This document shows, in pieces, positions 33,001 to 39,000 of a DNA stretch of 64,000 bases. Location of the stretch: contig CAKOOC010000001.1 of the NCBI GenBank assembly GCA_934098375.1, forward strand, positions 6,772 through 70,771. Direction: 5' to 3'. The position numbers are program-made. Positions within the stretch are counted from its first letter, which is position 1; each line of letters opens with the position of its first letter. This DNA is from an uncultured Bacilli bacterium. Lineage in GTDB: Bacteria > Bacillota_I > Bacilli_A > RF39 > UBA660.

Positions 33001-36000
33001 ATAAACTCCTTGATATTTTCCCATTTTTTCGAAGGCAAATACACTTTTATAATCTTCTACTACGCATATTAAGTTATGATTTCGGTATTCATCGTCACAA
33101 ATGCGACATTTATTTTCGGTCGTTATGTTACCACAGATTTGGCATGTATGCAATTTTGTTTTAGCATCTACTATAGCGGCAGCAAATGATTCAACATCTT
33201 CTTCAGTGAATTCAATTACAGATAATGCTAATCTTTCTGCGGTTTTTTCGCCTATACCTGGAAGCTTTTTAAAGTATTCAATTAAATTTTCAAGAACTTT
33301 GGGATAAATCATGTTACATCAATCCGTTTAATCCTTTAGCAAGACCGCCTAGTTTTTGTTCAACAGTTTTTTCAATTTGTTTTATGGCATCGTTGATAGC
33401 AATTTTAATCATATCTTCTAATGCTTCTAAGTCTTCTTCATCATGTAAAATGCTTTTATCTATTTCTATTTTAATAATTTCTTTTTTACCATTTAATTTT
33501 GCGGTAACAGCACCTGATGTGCTGGTAAACTCCATTTCATATATTTCTTCTTGTTTTTTTTGTAAATCTCTTTGCATTCTTTGGGCTTGTGCCATTAAAT
33601 TTTGCATATTCATATTTCTTTCCTCCTAATTACTTTCTAATTAACTTCAATTATTTCATCAGCAAAAATATCTTTTGCAGCGTTATAAACTTCGGTTTGT
33701 TCTGTTTCAGTTTTTATTTCTTCTATATATTCATATTTTTTATTTTTGTTTTTAATAAATTCTGATTTTTCTTTTAACCATCTATTTTCATCTAAGCAAA
33801 TAAATACTTCGGTACTATTTGTGTGTTTTTGATATTCTTTTTCAATTAGTTCAAGATTATTGTTAAATAATAATGAAGTAGATAAAGATTTTGATGAAAA
33901 TATAACATTAGTTGGAGAAACTACCTCAACTTGTAAATCCTCAATTAATGATAATATTTCTGATTTATTATTTATGGTTATATATTTTATAAAGCTTTCC
34001 CATTTATTTTTAAAATTTGACTTTATTTCTTTTGTTGCGCCTACATAAGCGTTATTAATACGAATTCTTATAAATTCTTCTTTAATTGGTTTTGATAAAT
34101 CTGTTTGCTCATCAAAGTCATTTTCTTTTAAATCTTCCTTTGTTTCAGGGGAAGCTTCTGTTTTTATTATTTCTGAATGATTTTCCTTTTTTATAGGATC
34201 TAAATTTTCTTGTTTTGCTTCAGAAATTATTTCCCGGGAAATAATTTTAGATTGTTTATCAGCATTTTTATTGGAAAAATAACTCAGTAAAATAATTTTT
34301 ATTAAGTTAAAAGCTCCTTTTTTATTGTAACATTCTGATAAATCTTTTGATAAATTTTTAATATCTGTAATTGTAAGAACATTTTGTTCACTATTAATTG
34401 TTTTGATTTCTAAAGAATATAAATAATCTATTAATTTATTTATTAAAAGGTTTAAATCTAATCCTTTGTTTTTATAGTTATCAATTATTTGATTAAATTT
34501 ATCAATATCTTGGCTACTTAAAGCGTCTATTATTTCATTTATATCATTATTACCAATTACACCAAAAGTTTTTTCAATTAATTCAATAGTAATTTTTTGA
34601 TTTTCTTTTGATAACTGATCTAAAAAGCTTAATGCATCTCTCATACCACCATCGGATAATTCTGCTAGATATTTAATGGCTTCTTCGTCAATTTCTATTT
34701 TTTCTAAATCGGCGATTCTTTTTAAATTTTCACTGATTACGTTATTATTTATTTTTTGAAAATTATATCTTTGACATCTAGATAAAATAGTTATAGGAAT
34801 TTTCTGAATTTCTGTAGTAGCTAATATAAAGATAATATGTTTTGGTGGTTCTTCTAAGATCTTTAAAAATGCGTTCCAAGCACTTTGAGAAAGCATGTGA
34901 ACTTCATCAATTATATATACTTTATATTTACTTAAAGCCGGTAATATTTTAGCATTATCTCTTAAATCTCTAATTTCATCTACGCCATTATTTGATGCAG
35001 CATCGATTTCAATTATATCGGGTGATTCTTCATAATTTAAGCAAGAGTTGCATTTATTACATGGTATTCCATCTATGGGGTTTTCACAGTTAATAGTTTT
35101 AGCAAATAATTTGGCAGTGCTGGTCTTTCCGGTTCCTCTAGGACCAGAAAATAAATAAGCATGAGCCAATTTTTGCTGTTTTATTGATTCTTTTAAAAGA
35201 GTTTTTATATTATCTTGTCCATATAAATCATTAAAATCTTGAGGACGATATTTTCGGTAAAGTACTTTATATGCCATTGTTTCCTCCATACATGTATATT
35301 ATATCATAGTAAAGAGGTTTATTTGCTTTTTTTAGCGTAAGTTTTTCCAAAAAAATTCATTTAATTTTATGTATTCATCTTTTTTAGCAGCCATTTGTGA
35401 TGGCAGTGATAATTGTTCAAATTCTGTTTTATTATATATTTTTTTTGTTTGTAATTTTGGAAGTAAATAATACACTCTTTCTATACGACTTTCTTTAATA
35501 ACATTTTTACACATATCACATGGTTCAATAGTTACATATAGCGTACATTTGTTCAATCTCCATGTTTTTAATTTTTTATTAGCTTTAATTATAGCTTTGA
35601 TTTCAGCGTGATCAATTGTTTTTTGAGTTTTATTTCTTTTGTTATATGCTGTTGATATTATTTTATTATTATAAACAATTATGGCAGAAATAGGTGTTTC
35701 ATTTTGTAGATATGCTTTTTTTGCCAATGATAATAATTTATTTATTATTTTTTCTTCCATATTTACTCCTAAATAAAAAGCGCACATATATAGAGGTAAA
35801 TGTGGCTGCTTTCTTCCGAATCTGACCAGGTTATTACATATATATTGCGCAATTTAATATTAACACATGAATTAAGTATAATCAAATAATTATAATAAAA
35901 TGTTTCACGTGAAACATTGAAGCATGTGGATAACTCTTTAGCAAATAAAAATATATATATTATTATAAATTTAAACAAAGTACATACAAAATTATTTCCC

Positions 36001-39000
36001 GGGAAATAATTTTGTATTAATTAAAGTAATATAAATGTTTCACGTGAAACATTTATGTGTATAACTTTAAAAATTTTAAATTGATATTAATTTTAATATA
36101 TGCAATAATTATTTATATTTATTTCTAGAATTAAAAATTTTTAGCCGATGTTTCACGTGAAACATCGCAGATTGTTTACAACTTAATATCAAGTTTCGTT
36201 TTTTTATAAATTATTTCCCGGGAAATAATTTATTATTTTCAAATATTAAAAATTTAATATAACTTACGGCAATGTTTCACGTGAAACATTGCCTTTTGTG
36301 GAAAAATTTTATTAATTTATAAAAAACATTAATTTATTATATAAATATTATTATTATATATTTTAAGCGATAATGTTTCACGTGAAACATTATCGCTTGT
36401 GGATAACTATAGTTTTTCTTTAAGCAAAATTATTTCCCGGGAAATAATTTTATTAATTAACTATTAAATAATAATTATTTAAATTACTTAAATTTTATTT
36501 CATTATGAACATAAAATTTTGTGCAAATGTTTCACGTGAAACATTTGCTTGTTCATATTTAATTATAGAATTAATAAAAAAACACCTATTTTTGTAATTT
36601 ATAAGGTGTTTTTAAGTTTTATTTTTAATGTTTCACGTGAAACATTGTTGATAACAATTAATCTTGACTTTGTTCTTGTTCTGATGTTTCACGTGAAACA
36701 TCATCTGAAGACACTAAGCTAATTGAAGAAACAAATTGATTATCTTTTAAGTTAATTAGTCTTGTTCCTTGAGTTACTCGGCCTAATTGTGATATTTGAT
36801 CGATTGGAATTCTTATTATTATGCCTGTATTAGTTATCAACATCAAATCCGTTTCAGGCATACACTTTTTAATTGCTACAATATTACCGTTCTTTTCAGT
36901 AATATTTAATGCTTTAACGCCTTTGCTACCACGTTTTGTTTTACGATACTCACTTAACATTGTTTTTTTGCCATATCCTTTAGCGGTTACAATAATAATA
37001 TTATCGTCATCAGTAGCGGCTTCTAAGCTAACACATTTTGATCCATTTAAATTAATACCTCTAACTCCTGATGCTGTACGACCCATAATACGAATTTCGT
37101 TTTCATCAAACACAACCATTCTGCCTGATTCAGATGCAAGCATGATATTATGTAAACCATCAGTCTTTTTAACATCTACTAATTCATCTTTTTCTTTGAG
37201 TTTTATGCACAATTTACCAGTTTTACGAATGCTATCGAATTCATTTAAGGCCGTTCTCTTAACTATACCATCTCTAGTAGCGAATAATAAATATTTAAAG
37301 TCATCATCGTTATTATAAGATATAACAGATTGAACTTTTTCATCCTTTTCGATTGGAAGTAGGTTTATAACTGGAAGACCTTTTGATGTACGACTAAATT
37401 CTGGTACTTCATAACCTTTAATCTTATATACTTTACCTTTATTTGTAAAGAATAATAAGTAATCATGAGTATGTAGATTTAGCAAGTAATCAACACAATC
37501 TTCTTCGTTAGTTGACATTCCCTTTACACCTACGCCACCACGATTTTGAATGCGATACGTATCTACAGTGGTTCTCTTAATATATCCATTCTTTGTTAAT
37601 GATACTATTATGTCATCATTTGGAATTAATGATTCATCTTCAATATAATCAATAGCTGTCATATCAATAGTTGTTCTTCTTTCATCTCCAAAGCGTTCTT
37701 TTATATCAGTTAATTCTTCTTTAATAATTCCTAAAATTAATTCTTCTGAAGATAGGATTTTGCGATAATAGTCGATTTTTTCTAGTAATTCTTTTAATTC
37801 GTCTTCTATTTTTGATCTTTCAAGACCAGTTAAACGACGTAATTTTAATTCTAAAATACTGTCAGATTGTATTTCTGTAAGGCCAAATCTCGTCATTAAC
37901 TCATTTTTAGCAACCTGATCAGTTTCTGATTCTTTAATTATCTTTATTACTTCATCAATGTGATCTAAAGCAATTTTTAAACCATTTAATATATGTACTC
38001 TATCTTCAGCTTTCTTTAAATCAAATTGGGTTCTTCTTATAATTACTTCTTTTTGATAATTAATATATTTAGCAATAATATCTTTTAATCCAAGTGTTTT
38101 AGGAGTTTTTTCATCAATCATTAAAAGAATTATGCCATAATTAATTTGGAATGCAGTATGTTTATATAAATTATTTAAAATTACTTGAGCATTTGCATCT
38201 TTCTTTAAAGTAATTGTAATTTTGATGCCATTTTTTAAATCAGTATGATAGTCAGAAATACCATCAATTATCTTATTGTGAACTAGTTCAGCAACTTTAG
38301 CATGAACATCCTTTAAATTAATTCCATAAGGAATTTCTGTTATAACAATGTTATTATGTTGACCTTCTTCTTCGATTGTAGCACGGCTACGAATTGTTAT
38401 TGATCCTCTTCCTGTTTCATATGCTTGTTTTATACCTGAATTACCTAAAATGATGCCGCCAGTTGGAAAATCTGGGCCTTTAATATAATTCATTAACTCG
38501 GCTGTAGTAATATCATGATTATCAATATATGCAATACAACCATCGATAACTTCAGTTAAATTATGTGGTGGTATATTTGTAGCCATACCTACTGCAATAC
38601 CCATAGCACCATTTACTAAAATATTAGGATATCTTGATGGTAAAACTTCTGGTTCTTGCAACGATTCATCAAAGTTTGGTCGCATATTAACGGTGTCTTT
38701 TTTTATATCTCTTAACATTTCTAAAGAAATTTTTGATAATCTTGATTCTGTATAACGATATGCAGCGGCAGAATCACCTTCAATAGTACCGAAGTTACCG
38801 TGACCATCAATTAAAGTATATCTTAACTGAAAACTTTGAGCTAATCTTACCATGGCATCATATATAGATGAGTCTCCATGTGGATGGTAGTTACCCATAA
38901 CTTCTCCGACTGATTTAGCACATTTACGATGCGGTTTATCGGGAGTGTAACCATTTTCATACATAGACCAAAGAATTCTTCTATGAACAGGTTTTAAACC

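Follow-up and report, generated by a model that had tools for sequence, protein, structure and literature searches.

How do bacteria keep the onset of replication in step with the segregation of the newly made origins? The question is raised by a locus of an uncultured Bacilli bacterium (RF39; UBA660), in which the gap between gyrA and ffs, the small signal recognition particle RNA gene, holds an array of parS sites with 9-mers resembling DnaA boxes beside them. The locus lies in a window of 64,000 nucleotides (contig C1, positions 6772-70771) of an assembly of 1.137 Mb in 39 contigs with a G+C content of ~26-27%; positions below are those of the window unless a contig or locus is named. The explanation that we favour, with a probability of about one half, is that the gyrA-ffs gap is the chromosome centromere and that the 9-mers beside parS are genuine DnaA boxes held by selection.

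parS sites and adjacent DnaA boxes in the gyrA-ffs gap

The array, called the island here, its two borders and its sites are the following.

35901-36700: island, array of parS and DnaA boxes between ffs and gyrA
35764..35859, minus strand: ffs (Rfam, 62 bits), left border of the island
36658..39216, minus strand: gyrA, right border of the island
35901..35916: parS copy 1, perfect 16-bp palindrome
35925..35933, minus strand: perfect DnaA box (TGTGGATAA on the plus strand, TTATCCACA on the minus strand), 8-nt gap after parS 1
36036..36051: parS copy 2
36056..36064, minus strand: one-mismatch DnaA box TGTGTATAA (TTATACACA on the minus strand), 4-nt gap after parS 2
36149..36164: parS copy 3
36173..36181, minus strand: weak box-like TGTTTACAA at +24 from parS 3, reading TGTTTATAA in the close relative G004
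36273..36288: parS copy 4
36297..36305, minus strand: one-mismatch DnaA box TGTGGAAAA (TTTTCCACA on the minus strand), 8-nt gap after parS 4
36374..36389: parS copy 5
36398..36406, minus strand: perfect DnaA box TGTGGATAA, 8-nt gap after parS 5
36528..36543: parS copy 6, with only the weak TGTTCATAT (36550) after it
36629..36644: parS copy 7, immediately downstream of the gyrA stop codon
36646..36654, minus strand: one-mismatch DnaA box TGTTGATAA (TTATCAACA on the minus strand), 1-nt gap after parS 7
36685..36700: parS copy 8, within the final gyrA codons, without a box

The eight perfect copies of TGTTTCACGTGAAACA agree with the 16-bp palindrome TGTTNCACGTGAAACA of Firmicute-type parS and are all the perfect parS sites of the assembly, where shuffles expect 0.01; one additional parS-like site, on contig C3, has two mismatches. 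A cognate pair of ParA (267 aa) and ParB (300 aa) is encoded on contig C1 at ~120.9-122.7 kb. Scored against TTATCCACA with at most one mismatch, the island holds two perfect and three one-mismatch DnaA boxes. Each of the five resembles TTATCCACA when the minus strand is read, and all stand 1-8 nt from a parS, the Caulobacter-type arrangement of DnaA boxes inside the parS region. The initial annotation had described boxes beginning 24 bp after the first base of three parS copies, two further one-mismatch boxes abutting other copies, and one orientation common to all; direct reading and pattern searches reproduced these coordinates, offsets and orientations exactly. It had also stated that, within the window, no non-coding perfect box exists besides the two of the island; this held, the third (57532) being inside a prfA-like open reading frame (ORF). 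Across the assembly, 11 of the 13 perfect TTATCCACA boxes are within ORFs of at least 100 aa, the remaining two being those beside the island parS.

An excess of the 9-mers beside parS over the genome-wide expectation, on which the initial proposal depended, is clear. TGTGGAWAA has 31 occurrences on both strands of the 1.137 Mb, which gives P ~1e-10 for at least 3 of the 16 parS flanks carrying it at one common offset (41 offsets, 2 orientations). Boxes with at most one mismatch number 5 per 800 bp in the island, the densest window of the assembly, against a genome mean of 0.26. TTWTCMACA is found 128 times genome-wide, and at least three copies occur in just two 500-bp windows, one at the island and one at the oriC upstream of dnaA.

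Four of the modules share the +24 offset (copies 1, 3, 4 and 5). Their flanks are 20-53% identical to one another, compared with 34 +/- 9% for random sequence, and the good boxes of copies 1, 4 and 5 are 89-100% identical mutually, with 67% for the weak 9-mer of copy 3. A repeat search of the island found nothing common to the modules except parS and the box. With flanks at or near random identity, a recent duplication of a long unit was rejected. Judged from these alignments, duplication may account for the common 8-nt gap, not for the retention of the box.

Two further kinds of palindrome are interleaved with the array or built around it. The first is the Noc-site-like palindrome ATTTCCCGGGAAAT.

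35994..36007: Noc-site-like palindrome, copy 1, interleaved with parS
36213..36226: Noc-site-like palindrome, copy 2, interleaved with parS
36432..36445: Noc-site-like palindrome, copy 3, interleaved with parS
34229-34242: Noc-site-like palindrome outside the island, inside dnaX

These four are all the perfect copies of the assembly and lie within 2.3 kb, the three of the island being spaced by exactly 219 bp. No good DnaA box was found beside the Noc-binding site (NBS) in dnaX of this genome. In the relatives G373, G295, G161 and G102, no spacer separates the NBS, the DnaA box and parS. A second ParB-family protein, Noc-like and 478 aa long, is encoded at 51862-53298 after rsmG, the usual position of noc, and is far longer than usual; no soj-spo0J stands beside its gene, and the ParA-ParB pair is ~63 kb further along the contig. 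The second kind encloses parS itself, each copy being part of a longer palindrome with arms that differ from copy to copy (for example 36268-36293, 36366-36397 and 36523-36548; arms such as GGCAA...TTGCC and AGCGATAA...TTATCGCT), as is also seen in many relatives. At copies 4 and 5, the right arm of the longer palindrome occupies the 8-nt gap ahead of the DnaA box.

Chromosomal position and the DnaA protein

On the minus strand, dnaA (44155-45498) is followed by dnaN, a ComK-family gene, recF, gyrB and gyrA, and beyond gyrA come the 800-bp gene-free gap, ffs, a tadA-like deaminase gene and dnaX. The cumulative GC skew has its minimum at 44-46 kb and rises after it, with the sign switch at 45.5-46 kb, and the origin is therefore placed at the dnaA-rpmH gap. 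The island is ~9 kb from this point, an origin-proximal distance as expected of a parS centromere; being intergenic and outside oriC, it also has the position of the DnaA-box clusters (DBCs) known from Bacillus subtilis. The boxes on the origin side form one cluster.

45593..45665, plus strand: oriC box cluster upstream of dnaA, TTATCAACA at 45593 and TTTTCAACA at 45648 and 45657

Only degenerate boxes flank dnaA, as first annotated: TTATCAACA, TTTTCAACA (twice) and TTATTAACA.

The perfect boxes of the island are stronger than those by dnaA and stand in AT-rich, gene-free DNA, which would suit a second origin, or a part of a split origin, with parS embedded in it. The GC skew, however, is negative to the left and to the right of the island, its only sign switch being the one at dnaA; the genes from gyrA to dnaA are all co-oriented and point away from the dnaA-rpmH gap; and the island boxes are ~100 bp or more apart, unlike the arrays on which DnaA oligomerises. 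GC skew and gene orientation rule out the island as an origin, and we regard the whole proposal as extremely unlikely.

An alignment to B. subtilis DnaA (8BTG, E = 1e-115) spans the whole of the predicted DnaA. In domain IV, the base-reading residues R and D-H-S-T-V-L-H are kept (PRQ...GNRDHSTVLHA), with Ser in place of the equivalent of Escherichia coli T435 (residues ~412-422, GNRDHSTVLHA) and the other readers conserved. The one-mismatch variants of the island match those clustered upstream of dnaA, at the GC-skew switch. The box of copy 7 is TTATCAACA, the type used at the organism's own oriC, and reads TGTGGATAA in G004 and TGTGGATAT in G002. We consider it fairly likely that DnaA binds the parS-adjacent boxes. 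As a separate observation, the Ser at the T435 position might relate to the frequency of TTATCAACA-type boxes in this lineage.

A different protein could read the motif TGTKGATAAC, for instance a regulator of ffs or gyrA transcription or an additional factor working at the centromere, and the likeness to a DnaA box would then be coincidental or reflect shared use. Copy 1 is immediately upstream of ffs, and the preference for C or T after the 9-mer and the recurrent weak TGTTTATAA are not classic features of DnaA boxes. Against this stand the identity of the motif with the universal DnaA box, the clustering of the same variants upstream of dnaA, the conserved DNA-reading residues of DnaA, and a promoter scan of the island at background; we hold such a reader to be quite unlikely. 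An explanation of the island by promoters or terminators was likewise discarded: promoter-like matches are at the background level, and the terminator-like matches are the parS palindromes themselves. A scan for structured RNA (Rfam) at the island returned ffs alone, adjoining it.

Elsewhere in the window of this 1.1-Mb genome, the ComK-family gene between dnaN and recF is at 42356-42802, and a SpoIIR-family gene is at 58457-58972.

Recurrence of the pairing in related genomes

Arrays of parS are present in 20 of 23 genomes of the same genus, with 1-9 perfect copies each, and occupy the same gyrA-ffs-tadA-dnaX gap in every locus with enough flanking sequence. We surveyed 162 outward flanks of 81 parS from 21 genomes of the genus and found 27 forward boxes with no more than one mismatch. 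The distance to parS was 9 nt or less for 26 (a gap of 1 in 13 cases and of 8 in 6). The same flanks held 6 boxes in the reverse orientation, and two composition-matched controls gave none. The box rate adjoining parS was 27/1773, as compared with 40/48946 further off, counts that are phylogenetically non-independent. An unbiased comparison of k-mers between the parS flanks and the array background gave TGTGGAT, GTGGATA and TTGTTGA as the top words. Among 1,680 9-mers of the same composition, TGTGGATAA ranked first beside parS, with 21 sites in 11 of 20 genus genomes; the permutation null had a mean of 0.26 sites, and the runners-up were shifted versions of TGTGGATAA itself. Chance pairing was ruled out by the genome-wide counts, the shuffles, the composition-matched controls and the 1,680-permutation control.

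A strict composite, defined as a parS half-site followed after 1-9 nt by TGTKGAWAA, was searched for in 401 sampled genomes of the family. It was found in 24 of them, and with the box reversed in 13 more, which gives 37/401 for both orientations; the backward controls were each found in 0 of the 401. Outside the family, none of 342 genomes of the same class had the strict composite. The parS-box pairing is known from at least 29 genera of the family. The 51 sites collected comprise 50 distinct 25-mers, and their information content is at background outside the box except for a C at +9, which rules out that they are copies of a single long repeat. The C that commonly follows the 9-mer beside parS yields TGTGGATAAC, the context of strong E. 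coli boxes.

The fixed offset of 24 bp, which was first proposed as a feature of the composite, is exact at copies 1, 4 and 5 and is not general. Among 61 relatives, the exact pattern was seen just in this genome (G000) and the near-identical G004, and as a conserved rule it was rejected; G002 has a degenerate TGTGTAAAA at +24, and in the other relatives the gap is 0-9 bp, most commonly 1. At 1 and at 8 bp from parS, the box faces different sides of the helix. The common orientation is likewise a local property. Every box in the genus of this organism (g1) is on the gyrA side with its TGTGG end toward parS; boxes of other genera are on the ffs side or reversed, uniformly within each array, and an invariant side or orientation thus holds in the genus and fails at the level of the family. 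The variation of gap, orientation and side is evidence against a stereospecific docking geometry between ParB and DnaA. From the alignments, the 8-nt gap of copies 1, 3, 4 and 5 is probably lineage-specific, the product of an old local duplication of one module, and not a functional constant.

The same uniformity of offset and polarity within an array would be expected if a functionless 9-mer had been amplified together with parS, the apparent conservation being shared ancestry. The module at exactly +24 is limited to G000, G004 and G002, and the common flank TAACAAGAACATAT of another subclade shows that flanks can be co-amplified. This hitch-hiking does not predict, however, that one and the same 9-mer would accompany parS in so many genera, on either flank and in either orientation, with gaps of 0-9 and unrelated sequence around it, nor the first rank of TGTGGATAA in the permutation control. 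It is also at odds with the modules of the island, where spacer and downstream sequence have diverged to the random level and the box is kept, and with the motif being the canonical DnaA box in variants that match the organism's own oriC. We judge it very unlikely.

Several points weigh against selection for DnaA boxes at the centromere. Copies 6 and 8 of parS have no good box, and the boxes of the island are 96-152 bp apart. Simple duplication of a unit also yields uniform polarity and offset within an array, and the statistics across species are phylogenetically non-independent, the arrays being orthologous. The strict composite is present in just ~9% of the sampled family genomes, and several parS arrays of the same genus bear a different flank motif; the composite is therefore dispensable.

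The arrays with the different motif belong to a subclade of the genus (G005, G009, G011, G012 and G020; loci L022, L025, L027, L018 and L031), where parS is flanked by TAACAAGAACATAT and not by a DnaA box. This flank resembles that of parS copy 8 in the tail of gyrA (TTGTTCTTGTTCTGA-parS), so duplication of that unit may be how the arrays expand. Loci from other families of the class have a perfect parS embedded in a T-box leader (Rfam RF00230, 106-143 bits), again in this origin-proximal neighbourhood: L006:1337-1559 (parS 1501-1516), and also L007, L008, L011, L012 and L013. At L006, the sole locus with ffs in view, the T-box leader is upstream of ffs.

A possible link between initiation and segregation

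A locus that titrates or inactivates DnaA, like the DBCs of B. subtilis or datA of E. coli, could explain the boxes by itself, the adjacency to parS arising merely because both have to be near the origin and the compact genome offers a single sizeable gap without genes. Of the two box clusters of the assembly, one is the island, which is close to oriC, and the origin-proximal clusters outside oriC in B. subtilis restrain initiation and are often species-specific. Sharing an 800-bp gap would predict, on the other hand, neither that 26 of 27 boxes stand within 9 nt of parS nor that there is one per parS, and the density of boxes is below that of the B. subtilis clusters. The best window of the island has A = 0.073 with a mean spacing of 150 bp, short of the A > 0.3 with at least four boxes that marks a DBC, and membership in that class was rejected. 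The oriC upstream of dnaA is also low (A = 0.013), and the threshold may not transfer to this organism. A single window of the assembly attains the B. subtilis score for stable DnaA binding: C16:21943-22013, where 70 bp hold four one-mismatch boxes (A = 0.316). A pure sink of this kind is, in our view, unlikely.

The proposal of a coupling point between segregation and initiation control, with which the locus was first annotated, fared in two ways: the pairing is non-random, recurrent and kept despite diverged surroundings, and the box density of the B. subtilis clusters is not reached. A link in cis between segregation and initiation control is a reasonable inference from the sequence, because of the pairing itself, the presence of genes for Soj, ParB, a Noc-like protein and DnaA, and the restriction of box clusters to the island and oriC.

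If the gap is a centromere with selected DnaA boxes, DnaA would occupy a single high-affinity box at 0-9 bp from each ParB loading site, and the footprints of DnaA and ParB would touch or almost touch. Gap and orientation vary and adjacency is always kept; the coupling would therefore most likely be steric and not a fixed protein-protein dock. Bound DnaA might act as a one-sided barrier to the nucleation of ParB or to the escape of ParB clamps loaded with cytidine triphosphate (CTP), and the uniform polarity of an array would confine ParB between successive boxes. A DNA-bound protein can block one side in this manner, as TetR attenuates the accumulation of ParB-CTP unidirectionally (PMC7053999). 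By this analogy the barrier is conceivable, with the odds against it. Conversely, the loading of ParB could modulate the DnaA capacity of the locus. The island would be duplicated seconds after initiation, doubling the local capacity for DnaA binding early in the cycle; given this early duplication and the ~9 kb to oriC, it would therefore also serve as a DnaA sink, the only one of the genome outside oriC.

A bolder and rather unlikely extension is that DnaA at the box fused to parS would be a cell-cycle-dependent gate for ParB, coupling initiation and segregation independently of Soj. At high DnaA levels, ParB-CTP clamps would be blocked on one side at each loading site and held between successive boxes, giving a dense, insulated centromere; the departure of DnaA after initiation would allow ParB to spread, and the loading of ParB would set the DnaA load of the sole sink outside oriC. 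In B. subtilis, the link between initiation and segregation runs via Soj acting on DnaA. If true, the gate would be a coupling encoded in cis and independent of Soj, and we know of none described in any bacterium.

More broadly, the locus suggests that in a gut family with compact genomes the link is written in the DNA, with initiator sites attached to the ParB loading sites. The island is a small portable fragment with natural variants (gaps of 0-9 bp, both orientations, with and without boxes), and it could directly distinguish mutual help between DnaA and ParB from mutual exclusion or blocking.

Full-text searches of the literature gave no description of repeated parS-DnaA-box composites, and the known systems each share a part of the arrangement. 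With the Spo0J and Noc systems of Firmicutes the island has in common the identical 16-bp parS consensus and ATTTCCCGGGAAAT, together with genes for Soj, ParB and a Noc-like paralogue. In B. subtilis, parS are dispersed and mostly intragenic and the NBS are spread over the chromosome, whereas here all perfect parS and three of the four perfect NBS are packed in 800 bp with DnaA boxes. A restraint on initiation by the ParB paralogue Noc is known from Staphylococcus aureus (PMC5540599).

Like the island, the DBCs of the Firmicute B. subtilis are groups of DnaA boxes in intergenic DNA, close to the origin and separate from oriC (Ishikawa 2007, PMC2533591), and DBC deletion is synergistic with the loss of Spo0J (Okumura 2012, PMC3245932). 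They consist of 4-8 tight boxes with a mean spacing of 4-21 bp and are not attached to parS, as opposed to boxes 96-152 bp apart with one per parS. At rctA/parS2-B of Vibrio cholerae chromosome 2, a centromere locus is likewise paired with initiator sites, and ParB and RctB bind there, each influencing the binding of the other (PMC3688505; PMC6399470). It differs in that the initiator is RctB and not DnaA and in being a single site by a plasmid-like origin instead of a repeated composite.

The closest precedent is the binding of DnaA at the centromere of Caulobacter crescentus, reported by Mera, Kalogeraki and Shapiro (2014) and cited here as given in a review (PMC6399470). In both organisms, DnaA boxes lie within the ParB centromere a few kb from the origin, and the initiator is thought to be active at both places. 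Caulobacter is an alphaproteobacterium with polar translocation driven by ParA, and DnaA binding has been shown there; in the present case the boxes are predicted from sequence. A repeated composite with one box per parS has, to our knowledge, not been described in Caulobacter. Unlike the Caulobacter centromere, the island has boxes abutting up to five or six of eight parS, in a Firmicute-type array with Noc-type sites.

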